Assembly (NCBI RefSeq): GCF_022846255.1
Contig: NZ_AP025682.1
Reading direction: 5' to 3' (one strand)
From: Escherichia coli
GTDB lineage: Bacteria > Pseudomonadota > Gammaproteobacteria > Enterobacterales > Enterobacteriaceae
Length of the DNA stretch: 64,000 nucleotides
This document shows positions 9,944 through 23,133 of this stretch, in pieces. The position numbers and the translations under genes are program-made. The notes under the pieces were generated by a model. The model saw nothing but the letters and a program-made list of their open reading frames with translations. It was not told the origin of the DNA and made no database searches. Each line of letters begins with the position of its first letter. Position 1 is the stretch's first letter.

Positions 9944-10594
9944 ATGAATACACAACTGATGGGTGAGCGTATTCGCGCTCGCAGAAAAGAACTTAAGATT
10001 AGGCAGGCTGCCCTTGGCAAGATGGTTGGCGTGTCTAATGTTGCTATTTCCCAATGGGAGCGTTCTGAAACTGAGCCCAATGGCGAAAACCTATTGGCTT
10101 TAGCCAAGGCTTTACAGTGCTCCCCTGATTACTTGTTGAAAGGAGAAGATAGTCTTTCAAACATTGCCTATCACAGCAGGCATGATCCAAGAGGTTCGTA
10201 TCCTCTAATTAGTTGGGTAAGCGCAGGATGTTGGATGGAAGCTGTAGAGCCATATCATAAGCGTGCAATAGATAACTGGTACGATACAACCGTAGATTGT
10301 TCAGAAGATTCGTTTTGGCTGGACGTAAAGGGTGATTCGATGACGGCTCCAGCCGGTCTTAGCATCCCGGAAGGGATGATAATACTAGTCGATCCTGAAG
10401 TAGAACCTCGTAATGGGAAGCTGGTAGTGGCAAAGCTCGAAGGAGAAAACGAGGCAACTTTCAAGAAGTTAGTTATTGATGCTGGCAGAAGGTTTCTAAA
10501 ACCACTTAACCCACAATATCCGATGATTGAGATCAACGGGAACTGCAAAATCATCGGTGTAGTTGTCGATGCAAAAATAGCAAACCTTCCATAA
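9944..10594 (+). CDS. c2: Prophage repressor, P22 C2 type
   Basis: 216 aa, MNTQLMGERIRARRKELKIRQAALGKMVGVSNVAISQWERSE...; N-terminal HTH and C-terminal LexA/S24-like domain. Confidence 0.95.
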   Translation: MNTQLMGERIRARRKELKIRQAALGKMVGVSNVAISQWERSETEPNGENLLALAKALQCSPDYLLKGEDSLSNIAYHSRHDPRGSYPLISWVSAGCWMEAVEPYHKRAIDNWYDTTVDCSEDSFWLDVKGDSMTAPAGLSIPEGMIILVDPEVEPRNGKLVVAKLEGENEATFKKLVIDAGRRFLKPLNPQYPMIEINGNCKIIGVVVDAKIANLP

Positions 10595-11195: not shown

Positions 11196-11777
11196 TTACT
11201 TGTTTTTGCCATGCTTATCCTGAGCGATAAGTTCATCCATAAGGCTGTCTGCCTTCCCGGCAAACCTAATGTAGCACTCATGCCTATAGCTTTCAGGGAT
11301 AACGAAACGGTCGGTATCAGGATATCCAACAGCAGGAGGCCTTCGAACGAGGAGTCCTTTTTTGAGCAATGAAATTGATTCATGAGCTCCCTTTTCCGTT
11401 TGTAGCTGGTTATTAGCGGCTACAGCGAATGCCAAATACGCTCTTTCTCCAAGAGTTAATGAATCAAACAAATCTTGCACATATTTTTCTTCTTTAGATT
11501 TGCGCTTCTGAGCAGCGGATACCTCAATTCTTTCAGTCACAGCGTGATAAGCGGAATTAACAACGCCGTTAAGCACATAGCTAACGCAAAACAACAGGAT
11601 GTAATACATCCAGTAATGAGGAAGGATTTCTGGATTATGCAGGTTTATCCATTCTTTTACGCTTACCGGCATAACAATAATCAATATGATCAGGATGATT
11701 AGCATATGAATCAACTGTTTAAGTGTCATTCCTTGCAGGAAAAAATGCATTAGTTCCTGCCACCATGAGTTGTTCAT
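11196..11777 (-). CDS. sieB: Superinfection exclusion protein SieB
   Basis: 193 aa, hydrophobic N-terminal half, matches lambda SieB as recalled. Confidence 0.9.
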   Translation of the reverse strand: MNNSWWQELMHFFLQGMTLKQLIHMLIILIILIIVMPVSVKEWINLHNPEILPHYWMYYILLFCVSYVLNGVVNSAYHAVTERIEVSAAQKRKSKEEKYVQDLFDSLTLGERAYLAFAVAANNQLQTEKGAHESISLLKKGLLVRRPPAVGYPDTDRFVIPESYRHECYIRFAGKADSLMDELIAQDKHGKNK

Positions 11778-15663: not shown

Positions 15664-15885
15664 ATGGCGGACATCATTGATTCAGTATCAGAAATTGAAG
15701 AATTACAGCGCAATACAGCAATAAAAATGCGTCGTCTGAACCACCAGACTATATCTGCCACTCATTGTTGTGAGTGTGGCGATCCGATAGATGAACTAAG
15801 ACGTCTGGCCGTTCAGGGTTGTCGGACTTGTGCAAGTTGCCAGGAAGATCTGGAGCTTATCAGTAAACAGAGAGGTTCGAAGTGA
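15664..15885 (+). CDS. TraR/DksA-family C4 zinc-finger protein
   Basis: 73 aa with CCECGDPIDELRR...CRTCASC four-Cys motif. Confidence 0.6.
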   Translation: MADIIDSVSEIEELQRNTAIKMRRLNHQTISATHCCECGDPIDELRRLAVQGCRTCASCQEDLELISKQRGSK

Positions 15886-16091
15886 GCGAAATTAACTCTC
15901 AGGCACTGCGTGAAGCGGCGGAACGTGCAATTCCAGCAATGGAACGCCTGTTAATGTTGCCAGCTGATGATGATTTGTTAAGTGAACAGGAACTTAAAGA
16001 TTACGGTGTGGATATTGATGCGCTCAACGCCTTCAAATTTCTGGCCGGACCAGAAACCGTGCTGGCACTGCGCCGTCAGGAAGTTTTTTAG
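15882..16091 (+). CDS. Hypothetical acidic protein, last gene of the pL operon
   Basis: 69 aa, GTG start overlapping the TraR-like stop, so likely translationally coupled. Confidence 0.5.
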   Translation: MSEINSQALREAAERAIPAMERLLMLPADDDLLSEQELKDYGVDIDALNAFKFLAGPETVLALRRQEVF

Positions 16092-16120
16092 TACGATCAA
16101 TGGTTAACTCAACTCTCATG
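16034..16120 (-). CDS. Candidate 28-aa ORF downstream of the LexA-box promoter
   Basis: Strong SD GAGGAGGG 5 nt before ATG; MRVELTIDRTKKLPDGAVPARFLVRPEI; antisense to the 3' end of gene 15882..16091. Confidence 0.25.
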
Positions 16121-16138
16121 ATTCCCTCCTCATTGATT

Positions 16139-16189
16139 TACTGTGTGAATATACAGTTACTTTATAAACCTCTCATTTGGATTTTGCAA
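16139..16189 (-). promoter_or_regulatory. Putative LexA-repressed promoter
   Basis: Minus strand TTGCAA, 17-bp spacer, TATAAA, then TACTGTGTGAATATACAGTT on + (CTGT-N8-ACAG) covering the predicted start site. Confidence 0.5.
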
Positions 16190-16223
16190 TGTTTTAAGGG
16201 CACGAATTGCGAATAACCCTATA

Positions 16224-16256
16224 CAAAAAAACCCGCCGAAGCGGGTCTTATCTTTC
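16224..16256. terminator. Bidirectional intrinsic terminator
   Basis: AAAAAAA-CCCGC-CGAA-GCGGG-TCTTATCTTTC; strong U-tract for minus-strand transcripts, weaker for the plus-strand pL operon. Confidence 0.6.
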
Positions 16257-16257
16257 A

Positions 16258-16431
16258 TTAATGCTTAGTCCTTACAGGAAAAGACCAGCATTTATATCCG
16301 TATGCGTGTGCATCCAAAACTCGGCGCTCTGAGTCAGGCGTCCCAGCTTTAGCTCGCGCCCTGCGATAACGACATTTTACCCAGCGGAAACCATCCGGAA
16401 GTTTTTTGGTAGGAATTTCTTTCAAAGCCAT
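16258..16431 (-). CDS. Candidate 58-aa basic ORF
   Basis: ATG with GAGG 7 nt upstream; MALKEIPTKKLPDGFRWVKCRYRRARAKAG...; below the ORF-track size cutoff. Confidence 0.2.
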   Translation of the reverse strand: MALKEIPTKKLPDGFRWVKCRYRRARAKAGTPDSERRVLDAHAYGYKCWSFPVRTKH

Positions 16432-16580
16432 AAATAAACCTCGTTCCAGGCGAGCACTTCCCTGAAACTTGATAAAAATATGGGGATCCGCTAATGTACT
16501 GTTGTTGACGCAGTACTGATTGCGGGTGCTCTAACATCCCCAATCCGAGCCCTTCCCCGGCAAAGGAAGGGCTCAAATTC

Positions 16581-17111
16581 TTATGAAGGCTTCACATACG
16601 CCTTCAAAATCGACATAATACGCTCAGCTTCTTCCATCGTGATGTTGGTAGGCAACCCCTGAACTGTAATCATTGCCCCTGTTTCAGGTCGAACAACGAT
16701 CGGTAAATTGAAAGTCTGCACTTTCTCATGTCTTGCAGCTTTAGCTTTCTCCATCTTCTGCTCCACCGCATCAAACCCATCTAAATTTCCTTCGGTGTCT
16801 GCCAAGTTGACTAAAGTCCCCACTCGCGTGTACTCCTCAAACTTATTGACAGCACTTTTAAACCGGCTTCGATAATTATGAATGGTGGATTCACTGGGCT
16901 TGTTTGCCTGAGTTTCAGCATAACGAGTAATGAGGTCTTCAACGTTCAGGTCGCGCACATCATCGTTGTCACTCGTGTCGACCACAGATAACAGCAGCAA
17001 CGCAGAATTTTTTAAGTTGCGAGCTGTTGCTTCGTTGATCAGCCCCAAGTTAGGCAACTTCATAAGAAAATCGAAGAATGCTTGCGTTGAGTAATTATCG
17101 TTCATAAGCAT
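16581..17111 (-). CDS. Hypothetical protein, 176 aa, no recognisable family
   Basis: ORF track; ATG start; hairpin GAGCCCTTCC...GGAAGGGCTC just after the stop. Confidence 0.6.
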   Translation of the reverse strand: MLMNDNYSTQAFFDFLMKLPNLGLINEATARNLKNSALLLLSVVDTSDNDDVRDLNVEDLITRYAETQANKPSESTIHNYRSRFKSAVNKFEEYTRVGTLVNLADTEGNLDGFDAVEQKMEKAKAARHEKVQTFNLPIVVRPETGAMITVQGLPTNITMEEAERIMSILKAYVKPS

Positions 17112-17156
17112 CTCTCATTGTTATCCATAGGTGTAGTGTAGATTCAGAGGTTTTAC

Positions 17157-17196
17157 CGATCAATGTTTTTTTTATCGATCGATCAATCTTTTTTTA
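17157..17196 (-). promoter_or_regulatory. GATC-clustered direct repeats in the leader of the 176-aa gene
   Basis: Three GATC within 27 bp; two copies of CGATCAAT each followed by a T-run, 45-85 bp upstream of the start codon. Confidence 0.35.
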
Positions 17197-17337
17197 AATC
17201 TAACCAATCCCACCCACTTAAAAACACTCAACAACATTTCACCCCCTCAGAAACAAAATAAAATAAACTATATAAAACAACAAAATACACAGATCTATAA
17301 AACAGACAACCGCCCCCGCCTCCCCCACCCCATACTG
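17186..17337 (-). repeat. Strand-asymmetric tract: G-depleted on +, G-rich on -
   Basis: About 6 G in ~150 nt on +; minus strand has GGGGTGGGGGAGGCGGGGGCGG (17310-17331) and further G-runs. Confidence 0.45.
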
Positions 17338-17407
17338 AATTTAGATACAGCCTTAGTTAATCAACCTTCGTTCACCAGAGCAGCACATATGCCTTCGGAC
17401 TTTTTAG

Positions 17408-17995
17408 TTAAGCCACAAATGGCAGTTTGCACAGTTCTGGTAGATTTGCCCTTACCAGAGCCTCCGCGAATTGTGGAGGTACGGCATTTCCGCATCTGGC
17501 GACCTGTTTATCCTTCGCATACTTCACGCCACGATAATCTTGGTCGATGATGTACCAGTCCGGGAAGCCCTGCGCCCGGTACAGTTCACGCGGCTGTAAC
17601 ATGCGCATACCAATATCAACAATGCGATACGTCACGCCATCGATCACCACCAGCCCGGTACAATCCTCGCCACAGTATTTACGCAGGAACGACAGCGTTT
17701 GTTGCGCGCGTTCTTCGTCGTACTCATCTACGGCAAGATGGGTTTCAACGTTCCCTACATGCAGGCCACCAGCCGTGACAGTCGGCATTGGCGCGTCGGT
17801 GCGTTGTCCATCCCGGCAGGTTCCGCGCAATTTAACCAGGTGAGAAGCAACCACAGCATGGTGATCGACGGTGGTCACAGAATGCATCGGCTCATCCATC
17901 CCCACTTCGGCAATAAACCGGTAAAGGTGTTCGCGATAAAGGTGAATATCAATGACTAAATCAGCAGCAGAAAGCAAAAGAATTTTTAGGTACAA
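17408..17995 (-). pseudogene. Remnant of a DNA cytosine-C5 methyltransferase (C-terminal part only)
   Basis: Motif IX-like RMLQPRELYRAQGFPDWY and motif X-like ARCGNAVPP present; no FxGxGG or PCQ motifs; ORF opens only with TTG. Confidence 0.6.
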
Positions 17996-18065
17996 TCAAA
18001 ATCACTTTTTGTTGTTAACTATTTGATGAACTACAAGGATAAGATCATGTATCAGCAAATCATTT

Positions 18066-18356
18066 TTGAAGAAGGAAAAGAACCAAGAGTGCACACAAGC
18101 CACCAAGACATCAAGACATCAAGACATCAAGACATCAAGACATCAAGACATCAAGTCTATCGAAATAAGTGATAACAGTGGAAAAGTTCAAGAGATTTCG
18201 GTTATGGAGTTCAAGGATACCAGAGGAGATGTTTTTTATGCTTACAACTATGCTTATTCTGGTAAAAAACCATCAAATGACGAAATCTATAAGGCTATTG
18301 ATGAGCTAAAGCCAATCGGTGAAAAATTCGAAATGTCTAAGACTATAAGCGATTAG
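18066..18356 (+). CDS. Hypothetical small protein containing an octanucleotide tandem repeat
   Basis: ORF track (TTG start, no SD); upstream ATG at 18047 with AAGGA SD is out of frame by one repeat unit. Confidence 0.4.
   Translation: MKKEKNQECTQATKTSRHQDIKTSRHQDIKSIEISDNSGKVQEISVMEFKDTRGDVFYAYNYAYSGKKPSNDEIYKAIDELKPIGEKFEMSKTISD
18102..18157 (+). repeat. Octanucleotide tandem repeat ATCAAGAC
   Basis: Five perfect units at 18110-18149 flanked by ACCAAGAC and ATCAAGTC; unit length is not a multiple of 3. Confidence 0.9.
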
Positions 18357-18518
18357 ATAAATCTGTTTTCAACATTGCAGCAAAATCATAGGAAGAACGC
18401 GACAAAGTTAACATGCTATCGCGAACAGTCGTTAACATCACCTAAAGTCAGCGAATCGCGATACATGGAAATGTCTGGGAAGAACGCCAAGAAGTAAGCG
18501 CAATTTGAACAAATGCGA

Positions 18519-18545
18519 ACCCGCCGAGTGCGGGTTTTCTTTTAT
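18519..18545 (+). terminator. Intrinsic terminator
   Basis: ACCCGC-CGAGT-GCGGGT followed by TTTCTTTTAT. Confidence 0.6.
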
Positions 18546-18586
18546 CTGAACTCGCTACGGCGGGTTTTGTTTTATGGAGACAAGAA

Positions 18587-18931
18587 ATGTCAGATTTGGC
18601 TATGAAGGTTTTGAAATGGCAATCGACTGGCGATGTTGGCATCAGTAGCGCAACTCTTGCCTCAATCGCATGTGGACTGAAAAAGAATATCTATGGTCAT
18701 AGCTTCGGTGCTCCACATGACGCAGCCGATTTCCGACGATGCGTTGCGCTTGTCGAGCAGATTCCAGAAATCAGGGATTCATTCGACAAGGTTGCAAAGC
18801 GCGTTCCGGCATTCAAAGGCATCCTCAACGAATGGGATTCTCTCGTTGCTCTGTTGAAGTCTGAAATGAAGATACACGGAAACAAAGCACCAGAGACTTA
18901 CAGAAGAATTAGCGAGTTACGCAAGGACTAA
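18587..18931 (+). CDS. Hypothetical protein, 114 aa, no recognisable family
   Basis: ORF track; ATG with GGAGA SD; MSDLAMKVLKWQSTGDVGISSATLASIACGLKK... Confidence 0.55.
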   Translation: MSDLAMKVLKWQSTGDVGISSATLASIACGLKKNIYGHSFGAPHDAADFRRCVALVEQIPEIRDSFDKVAKRVPAFKGILNEWDSLVALLKSEMKIHGNKAPETYRRISELRKD

Positions 18932-18989
18932 CCACAGCCTCACACTCGATGAGGCCCGTTCATTTCTCAAGATATCCAGACCTACCATT

Positions 18990-19012
18990 GCCGCATCAAT
19001 GCGGCTTTTCTT
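18990..19012 (+). terminator. Putative terminator before xis
   Basis: GCCGCA-TCAA-TGCGGC followed by TTTTCTT. Confidence 0.45.
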
Positions 19013-19036
19013 GCGTGTAATTGCGGAGACTTTGCG

Positions 19037-19255
19037 ATGTACTTGACACTTCAGGAGTGGAACGCACGCCAGCGACGCCCAAGAAGCCTTGAAACAGTTC
19101 GTCGATGGGTGCGCGAATGCAGGATATTCCCTCCTCCGGTTAAGGATGGAAGAGAGTATCTGTTCCACGAATCAGCGGTAAAGGTTGACTTAAATCGACC
19201 AGTAACAGGTAGCCTTTTGAAGAGGATCAGAAATGGGAAGAAGGCGAAGTCATGA
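19037..19255 (+). CDS. xis: Excisionase Xis
   Basis: 72 aa, MYLTLQEWNARQRRPRSLETVRRWVRECRIFPPPVKDGREYLFHESAVKVDL... near-identical to lambda Xis as recalled. Confidence 0.9.
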   Translation: MYLTLQEWNARQRRPRSLETVRRWVRECRIFPPPVKDGREYLFHESAVKVDLNRPVTGSLLKRIRNGKKAKS

Positions 19256-20400: not shown

Positions 20401-23133
20401 GTGAATTTAACCCTGACCCGAAGACTCTGGATGGGCTTTGCCCTGATGGCGCTGTTAACCCTGACCAGTACCCTGGTGGGATGGTACAACCTGCGCTTTA
20501 TCAGCCTGGTGGAAAAAGACAACACTCAGGCATTGATTCCTACCATGAATATGGCGCGCCAGTTGAGCGAAGCCAGCGCCTGGGAACTTTTCGCCGCGCA
20601 GAACCTGACCAGTGCCGATAACGAAAAGATGTGGCAGGCGCAGGGGCGAATGCTCACCGCACAAAGCCTGAAGATTAATGCGTTGCTGCAAGCGTTACGG
20701 GAACAAGGTTTTGACACCACCGCTATTGAACAACAGGAGCAGGAGATCTCCCGTTCGTTACGTCAGCAAGGGGAACTGGTGGGACAGCGTTTGCAACTGC
20801 GCCAGCAACAACAGCAACTCAGTCAGCAGATAGTCGCCGCCGCCGATGAGATCGCACGCCTGGCGCAAGGTCAGGCGAATAATGCGGCAACCTCCGCCGG
20901 AGCGACCCAGGCCGGGATTTACGATTTGATCGAACAACATCAGCGTCAGGCCGCAGAAAGTGCACTCGATCGGCTGATTGATATCGATCTTGAGTATGTT
21001 AACCAGATGAATGAACTGCGCCTTAGCGCCCTACGGGTGCAGCAAATGGTGATGAATCTGGGGCTGGAACAGATCCAGAAAAATGCGCCAACGCTGGAAA
21101 AGCAGCTCAATAATGCGGTGAAAATTCTGCAACGTCGGCAAATACGCATTGAAGATCCGGGTGTTCGTACTCAGGTAGCAACAACGTTAACTACCGTTAG
21201 CCAATATAGCGATTTGCTGGCGCTGTATCAGCAGGACAGTGAAATCAGCAATCACCTGCAAACTCTCGCCCAAAATAACATCGCCCAATTCGCGCAGTTT
21301 AGTAGCGAAGTCAGTCAGCTGGTCGACACCATTGAGCTGCGTAATCAGCACGGACTGGCGCATCTGGAAAAAGCCAGTGCACGCGGGCAATACAGCCTGT
21401 TATTGCTGGGGATGGTTTCACTTTGCGCACTGATACTGATCCTCTGGCGCGTGGTTTATCGCTCAGTCACGCGTCCACTTGCCGAACAAACGCAGGCACT
21501 GCAACGACTGCTGGACGGTGATATTGACTCCCCTTTCCCGGAAACCGCTGGCGTACGGGAACTGGACACCATCGGGCGGCTGATGGATGCGTTTCGCAGC
21601 AGTGTTCATGCACTGAATCGCCACCGTGAACAGTTGGCGGCGCAGGTCAAAGCGCGTACAGCTGAATTGCAGGAACTGGTGATAGAACACCGACAGGCAC
21701 GGGCGGAAGCAGAAAAAGCCAACCAGGCAAAATCAGCGTTTCTGGCGGCGATGAGCCATGAGATCCGCACACCGCTGTACGGTATTCTCGGTACCGCACA
21801 GCTACTGGCAGATAACCCCGCACTTAACGCTCAGCGTGATGATTTGCGGGCAATTACCGACTCTGGCGAATCGTTGCTGACCATCCTCAACGATATTCTC
21901 GATTATTCGGCTATCGAAGCAGGCGGCAAGAATGTTTCGGTCAGCGATGAACCCTTTGAACCGCGCCCGTTGCTGGAAAGTACCCTGCAATTAATGAGCG
22001 GACGGGTGAAAGGTCGCCCGATTCGCCTGGCAACGGCAATTGCCGACGATGTACCGACTGCGTTAATGGGCGATCCGCGGCGTATTCGTCAGGTCATTAC
22101 CAACCTGTTGAGCAACGCCCTGCGTTTCACCGACGAAGGGCACATTATCCTGCGTAGTCGCACTGATGGCGAACAATGGCTGGTCGAAGTGGAAGACAGC
22201 GGTTGCGGTATTGATCCCGCGAAACTGGCAGAAATCTTCCAGCCATTTGTTCAGGTAAGCAGCAAACGCGGCGGAACCGGGCTGGGGCTGACTATCAGTA
22301 GCCGTCTGGCCCAGGCGATGGGCGGCGAACTGAGCGCCACCAGCACGCCGGAGGTTGGAAGCTGTTTTTGTTTACGCTTGCCGTTACGTATTGCCACTGC
22401 ACCCGTGCCAAAAACAGTCAATCAGGCGGTACGTCTGGACGATTTGCGTTTGCTGTTAATTGAAGATAACCCGCTCACCCAGCGAATTACTGTCGAAATG
22501 CTGAACACCAGTGGTGCGCAGGTCGTTGCAGTAGGAAATGCCGCGCAGGCTTTAGAGACACTGCAAAATAGTGAACCATTTGCTGTCGCACTGGTGGATT
22601 TTGATCTGCCGGATATCGACGGCATTACGCTTGCCCGGCAACTGGCACAGCAATATCCGTCGCTGGTTTTGATTGGCTTTAGCGCTCATGTCATCGACGA
22701 AACACTGCGCCAGCGTACCAGTTCGCTATTTCGCGGGATTATCCCTAAACCGGTGCCGCGTGAAGTGCTCGCTCAATTACTGGCGCACTATCTCCAACTG
22801 CAAGTCAAAAATGATCAACCGCTGGATGTATCGCAACTCAATGAAGATGCTCATTTAATGGGGGCGGAGAAGATCCACGAATGGCTGATATTATTTAAAC
22901 AACATGCCCTGCCGCTTCTCGATGAAATCGACATTGCCCGCGCCAGTCAGGATAACGAGAAAATAAAGCGTGCCGCACATCAGCTAAAAAGCAGTTGCTC
23001 GAGTCTGGGAATGCGTAGCGCCAGCCAGCAATGCGCACAACTGGAGCAGCAGCCATTATCTGCCCCCCTTCCACACGAAGAAATTACACGCAGTGTTGCC
23101 GCTCTGGAAGCATGGTTAATAAGAAAGACCTGA
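20401..23133 (+). CDS. torS: TorS hybrid sensor kinase
   Basis: 910 aa, [33 protein letters not shown]..., HisKA/HATPase/receiver/HPt; GTG start. Confidence 0.95.

Follow-up and report, generated by a model that had tools for sequence, protein, structure and literature searches.

A lambdoid prophage lies next to torS in the 64,000-nucleotide stretch of Escherichia coli contig NZ_AP025682.1 analyzed here (hereafter the window), and the 3 kb at 16030–19036, between the last genes of its pL operon and xis-int, are the subject of this study. The torS gene occupies 20401–23133; the portion that we compared with its counterpart in E. coli NRG 857C is 98% identical. The pL direction of the prophage is the plus strand, on which gam, bet, exo, small open reading frames (ORFs), a TraR-type zinc-finger gene (15664–15885) and an Ead/Ea22-like gene lead into the studied stretch, and xis (from 19037) and int (from 19233) follow it. 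The minus strand carries the pR operon with O, P, NinG, NinI, Q, and the lysis genes, and a cI-like repressor is encoded at 9944–10594. A preliminary description of this DNA had proposed one accessory island of orphan genes as a candidate for an undescribed function. By alignment to relatives, the stretch instead resolved as a recombinational patchwork of at least five unrelated pieces. It includes a single intact cassette of 1 kb, which consists of a promoter, a gene for a protein of 176 amino acids (aa), a 149-nt spacer RNA, a 57-aa ORF, and a terminator. We hold this anatomy, both the patchwork and the parts of the cassette, with high confidence.

Borders and origin of the inserted block

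The borders of the patchwork were defined by comparison with the torS-site prophage of NRG 857C. Identity to that prophage runs over 15881–16069, is interrupted, returns at 17897–17959, and resumes from 18532 onward through ORF114, xis, int, and torS. The ~2.5 kb at 16070–18540 are nin-region DNA of Salmonella/Citrobacter-type lambdoid phages that now sits in the int-proximal region of the torS prophage. There the block has replaced most of the Ea22-to-ASCH segment of the E. coli torS prophage, truncating the Ea22-like and ASCH genes. The Ea22-like gene has 200 codons in NRG 857C and 63 codons here, and the remnant is 97% identical to L024 (2352–2540) up to position 16069, where identity ends. 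At the other side, 17897–17959 retains the 3′ end of the ASCH gene, with 89% identity to the copy in the NRG 857C prophage. Internal duplication as a source of the block was rejected, as there is no second copy within the window.

Related prophages carry a 173-aa gene, the 57-aa gene, and DinI in that order in the nin region on the pR strand. Because the cassette usually lies just upstream of dinI in these relatives, the dinI stub found here probably arrived along with it. The equivalent slot of phage 434 (L123, 707–1483) contains two putative membrane-protein genes on the opposite strand, between the zinc-finger gene and ORF55/ORF114, so reverse-oriented cargo at this position is not unusual.

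Searches of 5,426 complete E. coli genomes with megablast returned no match to 16092–17400, and none to 17960–18540 except for the theta-like 3′ end at 18413–18540. Parts of the 3 kb were matched in 2,421 E. coli genomes. The preliminary description had suggested checking whether the gene set is conserved across prophages, and the check gave a negative answer: the largest share of the 3 kb held by any one complete E. coli genome was 19%. A metagenome contig (L006, an ENA scaffold of 4,640 bp) was nonetheless 99.8% identical over 15800–18100 and had the same junctions from the Ea22 remnant through the dinI remnant and the cassette to the methyltransferase fragment. This copy indicates that the mosaic is real, rather than an assembly artefact, and that it circulates beyond this genome.

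The expectation of accessory, non-lambda DNA in a variable slot beside xis-int was thus borne out, and every feature that had been listed (LexA box, 176-aa ORF, methyltransferase fragment, repeat, 114-aa ORF, GATC cluster, and terminators) was found at its place (Table 1). The coherence of the island was not. Three of the pieces are dead remnants (dinI, methyltransferase, and holE-like), another gene is frameshifted, and the ORFs of 176, 57, 96, and 114 aa are not orphans but match phrog_2602, phrog_33859, phrog_7123, and phrog_1229, respectively, over their full length. Whether the genes act together had been left undecided; in our alignments a linked unit within the stretch was shown only for the 176-aa gene, the 57-aa gene, and the RNA that separates them, and not for the others.

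Table 1 Features of the 3-kb stretch and its left flank, in order of position in the window.
Feature	Position	Strand	Description
Truncated Ead/Ea22-like gene	15882..16069	+	First 63 codons; left flank of inserted block; PHROG 250/368
dinI remnant	16036..16119	-	ORF reads ATG-MRVELTIDRTKKLPDGAVPA; ~20 homologous codons; stop after 28 codons (codon 29)
dinI promoter with LexA box	16139..16176	-	Hexamers ATGAGA-17-TATATT, 16176-16148; found by promoter scan
Intrinsic terminator closing the cassette	16228..16249	-	ACCCGCTTCGGCGGGTTTTTTT; terminator scan
57-aa basic microprotein, second cassette gene	16258..16431	-	PHROG 33859 over full length, E 3.8e-35
Structured RNA	16432..16580	-	~150 nt, between the 176-aa and 57-aa genes
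176-aa protein, first cassette gene	16581..17111	-	N-terminal integrase-type core-binding (CB) domain, variable linker, C-terminal beta-beta-alpha domain; phrog_2602
Putative cassette promoter/operator	17135..17187	-	-10 TACACT 17140-17135; -35 TTGATC 17163-17158; 17-nt spacer
Second, weaker LexA-like box	17333..17352	-	GGCTGTATCTAAATTCAGTA; ~170 nt upstream of cassette promoter
C5-cytosine DNA methyltransferase, 3′ half	17408..17896	-	Target-recognition region and motifs IX-X only; dead remnant
ASCH-domain gene, 3′ end	17897..17959	+	Last 21 codons; right flank of inserted block
Gifsy-1/2 STM1019.1n homologue	18047..18356	+	Split into two frames by 8-bp repeat; PHROG 7123
holE-like (DNA polymerase III theta) prophage gene, 3′ end	18413..18540	+	Remnant, with terminator 18517-18537
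ORF114	18587..18931	+	114 aa; common lambdoid pL-operon gene; PHROG 1229; followed by tI-like terminator 18990-19005 and xis 19037

The cassette as a unit

The cassette runs from ~17190 to 16228 on the minus strand. Alignment with loci from Salmonella, Citrobacter, and Klebsiella aerogenes gave a single block of similarity that begins at ~17200–17300 and reaches down to 16223, ending exactly after the terminator. In ten loci from Salmonella, Citrobacter, and Klebsiella, BLAST identity started 85–190 bp upstream of the 176-aa gene and stopped at the terminator.

The segment at 17135–17187 is a putative cassette promoter set in ATTGATCG/ATCGATCGAT repeats. Two ATTGATCG repeats (17164–17157 and 17187–17180) lie 23 bp apart, the palindrome ATCGATCGAT occupies 17174–17183 with an A-tract before it, and three GATC sites fall within 31 bp (17157–17187). 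The whole region is kept in register in relatives with coding sequences only 62–78% identical. TTGAT/ATCAAG repeats were common to the 53 distinct upstream regions that we compared, and 40 of these had at least two GATC sites within 160 nt. The GATC cluster had been listed among the regulatory signals of the stretch. It forms part of the putative TTGAT(C) operator/promoter of the cassette, but distant relatives share TTGAT and not GATC. Dam methylation as the point of the cluster was rejected, since the motif shared by relatives is TTGAT(C/T)/ATCAAG and 13/53 upstream regions contain no more than one GATC. We read the cluster as a probable operator rather than a Dam switch, although this reading is weaker for the subtype in the window.

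The LexA-like box farther upstream has a CTG-N10-CAG core, fits 15 of 20 consensus positions, and occurs at the same offset in close relatives. Boxes of this kind were present in 14/63 distinct cassette upstream regions, compared with ~5 expected. Similar boxes lie upstream of the more distant cassettes of L008, L017, and L032. The cassette itself may be SOS-influenced through this box.

At the other end, the stem of the terminator and the first four T of its tail (CCCGCTTCGGCGGGTTTT) were identical in 6/6 aligned cassettes. Terminator-like hairpins were also found at 18517–18537, 18548–18567, and 18990–19005, and the scan returned 9 sites in total where 3.5 were expected from shuffled sequence. 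Two sub-threshold Rfam matches at 16226–16375 on the minus strand, to RsmY (22 bits, gathering threshold 57) and isrK (21 bits, gathering threshold 50), cover the 57-aa ORF and the terminator, and the terminator hairpin alone is probably their cause.

The 176-aa core-binding-domain protein

The AlphaFold model of the 176-aa protein (19 homologues) was confident for residues 8–100, which form four helices, and for residues 133–171, which form two strands and a helix, with a disordered linker between them. Foldseek retrieved proteins of ~180 aa from many phyla labelled ‘Core-binding (CB) domain-containing protein’. When 1.84 billion representative sequences were searched with a profile, 879 relatives were found, of which 347 scored below 1e-10. 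Almost all were 160–200 aa long, so the family is a stand-alone one and not a broken integrase. The best-conserved part of the family is the C-terminal motif RP..G..I.I.GLP.DLT.EEAERI, which reads RPETG..I.I.GLP.DLT.EEAERI in the window. Profile and structure searches had been recommended for the 176-aa and 114-aa proteins; they yielded the CB fold and the 879-member family for the former and no match in Pfam or among PDB sequences for either. The 176-aa protein likewise had no match in NCBIfam or PADLOC.

The protein has the core-binding (SAM-like) helical domain of a tyrosine recombinase and lacks the catalytic R-H-R-Y domain, as its 176 residues close with a 40-residue beta-beta-alpha domain and it has no match to Pfam Phage_integrase. 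Pfam DUF5343, the label on two of its neighbors in the AlphaFold database, was rejected as an identity: it was unmatched in the protein and in 47 distant relatives, where we found only weak Phage_int_SAM matches, and a literature search returned no relevant paper on DUF5343. Apparent N-terminal fusions in longer members (P0165 and P0113) look like miscalled start codons. Nothing relevant was found in the literature on stand-alone CB-domain proteins, their HicA contexts, or structured RNA in prophages.

The structured RNA

The spacer between the two genes folds more stably than shuffled controls (z-score −4.67). Across 30 distinct sequences, a 39-pair structure had 94.7% of its cells paired, compared with 37–46.5% when the partners were slid, and both sides had changed in 20 of the pairs. 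The observed covariation values were reached in 0/500 shuffles. G-U pairs on the sense strand indicate that the structure is read from this strand. A long hairpin of 14 pairs (16543–16578) directly follows the stop codon of the 176-aa gene; P1 (GGGGAU/AUCCCC), P2 (CCGC/GCGG), P3 (GUACUG/CAGUAC), and a conserved asymmetric internal loop are further elements, as are an invariant UCAAG and the final hairpin after it. In the predicted consensus fold, the UC of UCAAG and the U-run after it pair with the CGAGG Shine-Dalgarno region of the 57-aa ORF, the UC with its GG.

A covariance model scored 171 bits at 16429–16586, which is the sole copy in the window. Rfam (release 15) had no match at E ≤ 1 over 16432–16580 or in eight related loci. 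The nucleotide conservation of the spacer exceeded that of the CB gene in 9/9 comparisons and that of the 57-aa ORF in 6/9; it was 80–89% identical where the CB gene was 65–85% identical. RNA types 2 and 3 in other loci have the same layout and the core ...CCGCUA-hairpin-UAGCGG(A/U)UC..., type 3 with covariation of its own, and judging from this core they are probable homologues of the type-1 RNA. Type-2 variants have a true terminator after the first gene.

The tip of the first hairpin in type 3 occurs in two forms, GGACTGGGGAGTTGG and CCAACTCCCCAGTCC, which are exact reverse complements, so that the hairpin is kept while its central 15 nt are flipped. The two forms divide loci L050 and L069 from L013, L045, L070, L094, L096, and L100.

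The 57-aa microprotein

Compared with its relatives, the 57-aa ORF had 5–9% non-synonymous and 38–85% synonymous differences, with a ratio of the two rates (dN/dS) of 0.05–0.10. By this measure it is a real gene under strong purifying selection. The protein was 69–91% identical in comparisons where the upstream protein was 37–90% identical, and the gap was wide in Proteus (80% vs 39%), Erwinia (71% vs 38%), and locus L119 (82% vs 27%). Its AlphaFold model is a small beta-sheet with a mean predicted local distance difference test score (pLDDT) of 82.7. Two candidate small ORFs had been mentioned in the preliminary description. Of the small ORFs considered here, that of 57 aa stood up, and those of 75 aa (16349–16576, minus strand) and 38 aa (16100–16216, plus strand) had no homologue in a PHROG search. 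The 75-aa ORF also overlaps the structured RNA.

Distribution and linkage of the trio

We examined ~100 fetched loci with a CB gene. Nearly all of those from Enterobacterales and Vibrio had a small basic ORF 150–177 nt after the CB stop codon. These ORFs fell into four families: A, the 57-aa type; B, 47-aa proteins with four cysteines; C, 40–45-aa proteins ending in HYRSYP; and D, 39-aa proteins. RNA types and small-ORF families occurred in different combinations. A search of IMG/VR with the 22-nt RNA core gave 13 matches, all 13 on contigs that also had a CB gene, and in the two of these contigs from outside the set of ~100 loci the CB gene lay directly upstream. Three distant metagenome or chromosomal loci (L124, L126, and L127) contained a CB gene, a hairpin, a structured spacer with UCAAG, and a protein of 42–47 aa, and a Sorangium chromosome, reached from the microprotein side, had the same trio in the same order. 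The small proteins of these four loci align with families A and B. The microprotein profile recovered 134 clusters, mostly of 43–57 aa and none annotated; longer calls of up to 99 aa look like miscalled starts. The cassette was found in prophages and at chromosomal sites without a recognizable prophage, among housekeeping genes.

Two Gammaproteobacteria-like, non-enteric loci (L020, 3995–5136, and L022) had neither the RNA nor the microprotein, and instead encoded an overlapping 196-aa protein with N-terminal membrane helices, which suggests that downstream partners are interchangeable. In a third locus (L106, 4001–5038), a distant member of the CB family shares 4 nt with the gene that follows it, which encodes a HicA toxin (Pfam E 3.3e-6); after hicA comes a 74-aa gene whose HicB-like and UPF0150 matches are weak.

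The CB family thus comprises at least 879 sequence clusters and the microprotein family at least 134, and the trio ranges from E. coli prophages to Vibrio and Sorangium, across phyla. The preliminary description had put the stretch forward as a candidate for an undescribed function. The cassette is indeed undescribed: the CB protein, the microprotein, and the RNA have no entry in Pfam, NCBIfam, PADLOC, or Rfam, no solved-structure relative detectable by sequence, and no paper that we could find; the rest of the stretch is dead or ordinary.

Remnants and ordinary cargo

dinI and its LexA box. The first codons of the dinI remnant (ATG-MRVELTIDRTKKLPDGAVPA) match MIVELTIDSTKDLPKGAVPA and MKIELTIDRMKKLPDGALPA of the dinI genes of Citrobacter phage Chris1 and E. 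coli phage PHB10, and homology to these intact genes ends at the junction, short of a full-length coding sequence for DinI, the SOS-inducible RecA modulator (75–81 aa). The promoter contains a near-consensus LexA box, TACTGTGTGAATATACAGTT at 16139–16158, at the position that the box also takes in front of dinI in Chris1 and PHB10. A LexA-box promoter had been reported as a signal of the island. The box is there, but it belongs to the truncated dinI and regulates no island: from its orientation, the promoter should fire leftward, into the truncated 3′ end of the Ea22-like gene and antisense to pL, leaving the genes to its right outside its control.

Methyltransferase. The methyltransferase remnant had been recognized correctly. 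Its match to PHROG 23072 covers positions 214–393 of 400, that is, the 3′ half only, and its match to NCBIfam dcm is confined to profile positions 277–326 of 329 with a score far under the cut-off. The N-terminal catalytic motifs I–VIII (S-adenosylmethionine binding and PCQ) are missing, and ASCH homology starts at 17897.

Repeat-bearing gene. The repeat noted earlier, CAAGACAT in 7.5 tandem copies of 8 bp at 18096–18155, is present, but the small gene that bears it is a frameshifted homologue of Gifsy STM1019.1n. Positions 18135–18415 are 93% identical to STM1019.1n of Gifsy-1/2. The Gifsy copies are free of the repeat, and that of Gifsy-2 encodes 89 aa and lies directly upstream of dinI in the nin region. 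The homologue in the window starts at ATG 18047 (MYQQIIFEEGKEPRV...) and the 8-bp array shifts its frame. By frame analysis, the 96-aa ORF with a TTG start is an artefact of this frameshift and was rejected as a gene. The frame would be restored by the gain of one repeat copy or the loss of two, as happens in phase-variable genes, and the array may be a phase switch or simple decay. We found no other allele in E. coli genomes or IMG/VR with which to compare copy number; of two IMG/VR loci with the repeat, the one examined was unrelated.

Theta-like gene and ORF114. The sole counterparts of 18413–18540 in E. coli genomes are the ends of genes that carry the annotation DNA polymerase III subunit theta, and Citrobacter prophages have a theta gene between the cassette and dinI. 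The 114-aa ‘orphan’ is ORF114 of phages 434 and HK022. It is 94.6–98% identical to its counterparts in phages 434, HK022, Gally, and Huey, is CPT_434_33 in phage 434, where it lies upstream of the tI terminator, pI, and xis, and has no Pfam or PDB relative. It is ordinary, very common lambdoid cargo. ORF114 and the fragments of dinI, the methyltransferase, theta, ASCH, and Ea22 are known things, and most of the stretch is ordinary mosaic debris.

Defense models. Anti-phage defense had been among the functions suggested for this cargo. In PADLOC-DB 2.0, no model of a known system matched the stretch apart from methyltransferase models on the dead fragment, and the 176-, 57-, 96-, and 114-aa proteins had no match. 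Just outside the stretch, the TraR-like protein (15664–15885) gave a weak match and xis (19037–19255) matched mad1 at 1.5e-6. In the immunity region, a gene at 11196–11777 on the minus strand has a full-length match to PHROG 1301, described as ‘superinfection exclusion; inhibits SieB’.

Most of the stretch is therefore an example of how lambdoid prophages are reshuffled, with nin-region pieces moved beside int. The LexA-controlled promoter stub left over from this process could mislead annotation.

Function of the cassette

The explanation that we find most plausible overall joins the patchwork, the intact cassette, and a toxin-antitoxin (TA)-like mechanism, and we favor it tentatively. We take the cassette for a putatively autoregulated two-gene module of a known general kind, although a new class is a real possibility. 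For the mechanism by itself our confidence is lower: it is possible, though doubtful, that the cassette is an autoregulated, TA-like operon whose RNA controls whether the small protein is translated. In such an operon, the CB protein would bind the ATTGATCG/ATCGATCGAT repeats across the −35 element of its own gene and so regulate its own transcription. The long hairpin after the first stop codon, which is a true terminator in some variants, would lower or process read-through. The RNA helix would enclose the ribosome-binding site of the microprotein and release it only when a trigger (protein, ligand, processing, or temperature) remodels the RNA. The microprotein would be the effector, probably through nucleic-acid binding, and the module would act like a TA or abortive-infection addiction cassette of prophages and chromosomes. 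We prefer a TA or abortive-infection role because a fast-evolving upstream partner is paired with a conserved downstream one, the modules are shuffled, an operator lies upstream, and the cassette occurs in both prophages and chromosomes. About as doubtful is the stronger proposal that the cassette represents a new three-part class across phyla, made up of a CB-domain protein, a structured RNA, and an interchangeable microprotein of ~45 aa, in which the RNA is a true third partner. If correct, this could be, for example, a new TA or anti-phage type with the RNA, as a sensor or bound regulator, controlling translation of the effector. If the RNA does gate an effector microprotein, the module would be a widespread one, serving regulation or conflict, and mostly missed by gene callers since the small ORF is often unannotated.

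Several observations weigh against a TA-like operon. A structured spacer of 150 nt is atypical of type II TA operons, and no toxin, antitoxin, or defense model in PADLOC matches the 176-aa or 57-aa protein. The model of the 57-aa protein has no structural or sequence neighbor in the PDB. DNA binding by the CB protein, and the site it would bind, are predictions from the fold and the repeats. The promoter fits 8 of 12 consensus positions and was missed by the promoter scan, although both hexamers are positionally conserved in relatives. The type-1 covariance model barely detects RNA types 2 and 3, and the short core shared with them was read by eye. The terminator between the genes in type 2 could permit separate expression of the two genes, for instance under antitermination by phage N. 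The adjacency of CB gene and hicA in locus L106 is weakened as proof of a TA role by the HicB-like gene that follows hicA, and may be coincidence.

The closest competitor dispenses with addiction and defense. The cassette would then be a regulated operon for a non-toxic, nucleic-acid-binding microprotein, with the RNA as the true sensor (a riboswitch, a thermometer, or a protein-binding leader). The layout resembles an aptamer with an expression platform, with conserved internal-loop nucleotides, a variable apical hairpin, and a helix that pairs with the Shine-Dalgarno sequence; the module occupies chromosomal sites among housekeeping genes, and toxin models match neither protein. No ligand or trigger can be named, however, and in the sample examined the RNA always accompanied a CB gene, a linkage that a riboswitch acting on its own could do without. 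Conflict-type systems are also a better fit for the fast evolution of the upstream partner and for the shuffling of modules, and we consider a sensor operon unlikely, though only slightly more so than a TA-like one. We think it more improbable still that the CB protein and the small basic protein are accessories of DNA architecture or recombination in the lytic cycle, expressed from pR under N antitermination and present here as a displaced passenger. The two would then be comparable to integrase domains divided between separate proteins, and the CB fold of the first protein and the small basic beta-sheet of the second suit this. The cassette usually stands on the pR strand, with the replication genes on one side and dinI, ninG, or Q on the other, and type 2 has a true terminator after the first gene that N-modified polymerase could read through; both are in keeping with a lytic role. 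Against such a role, the cassette has its own conserved promoter-like region and terminator, occurs outside prophages where N protein is absent, lies on the strand opposite to the late-region genes in Serratia, and has no linked catalytic recombinase as a partner.

Two further explanations deny the cassette either its function or its independence. That it is a decaying passenger with nothing functional in this host is in line with the remnants all around it, the heavily rearranged host prophage, and the lack of cassette DNA in the 5,426 complete E. coli genomes. Both cassette ORFs are nevertheless intact and full-length relative to their families, the RNA helices, promoter-like region, and terminator are intact and score as well as those of relatives (171 bits for the RNA), and an independent metagenome holds a 99.8% identical copy, all of which make simple decay very unlikely. 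The least credible account is the one with which this DNA was first described, a single island of defense or exclusion genes over 16030–19036, expressed in the lysogen under SOS, Dam, and repeat control. The position beside int is indeed a variable cargo slot, as the membrane-protein genes of phage 434 illustrate, and regulatory-looking signals do exist. The separate origins of the pieces and their sharp junctions contradict a single island, three genes are truncated and one is frameshifted, and the LexA box drives a 28-codon stub that is directed away from the rest. PADLOC matches only the dead methyltransferase fragment, apart from a weak match outside the island, and the genes are not kept as a group, with no complete E. 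coli genome containing at least 80% of them.

Comparison with known systems

Lambdoid morons and prophage dinI (STM1019 of Gifsy-2) resemble the cassette in being bracketed by a promoter and a terminator and inserted between genes of a phage operon, and most relatives of the cassette lie directly upstream of a LexA-controlled dinI, in the slot that STM1019.1n takes in Gifsy-2. The window differs in that dinI is cut after ~20 codons and the block lies in the pL/int region in the orientation opposite to pL.

Type II TA systems such as hicAB and relBE are likewise small, autonomous two-gene cassettes with a repeat or palindrome as operator. As in those systems, an N-terminal domain of the DNA-binding type and a distinct C-terminal domain make up the upstream protein, which evolves much faster than the small downstream one; partners are swapped, and both prophages and chromosomes are occupied. 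The two genes are adjacent and co-oriented behind an upstream operator, with co-transcription predicted, and form a conserved unit whose pairing extends across phyla. Where type II operons have an overlap or short gap, however, the cassette has a covarying RNA of 150 nt, and a structured RNA of 149–245 nt was found in every locus with the microprotein. The second protein is only 39–57 aa, and no toxin or antitoxin family in PADLOC, Pfam, or NCBIfam is homologous to either product. The folded RNA directly upstream of a small ORF, with a helix over the ribosome-binding site, recalls the leaders of riboswitches and RNA thermometers and also type III TA systems such as ToxIN, which have a hairpin or terminator between the RNA and the protein gene; in the cassette, a hairpin or terminator ahead of the RNA could set the ratio of the two products. 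Unlike these, the cassette RNA has no Rfam match or known ligand and is always linked to an upstream CB gene, and it does not contain the tandem RNA repeats of ToxI.

The 176-aa protein shares its fold with the CB domains of tyrosine recombinases (lambda Int CB, 2oxo; an integrase N-terminal domain, 3nrw) at ~10% sequence identity, and has a linker and a 40-residue beta-beta-alpha domain in place of the catalytic domain. The recombinase-derived repressors MrpR of SPbeta (8a0a) and SroF of phi3T (9rd5) retain a full-length catalytic-like domain and act as master repressors. In contrast, the protein described here is a CB domain without the catalytic part, is not the prophage repressor, and is tied to a structured RNA and a microprotein.

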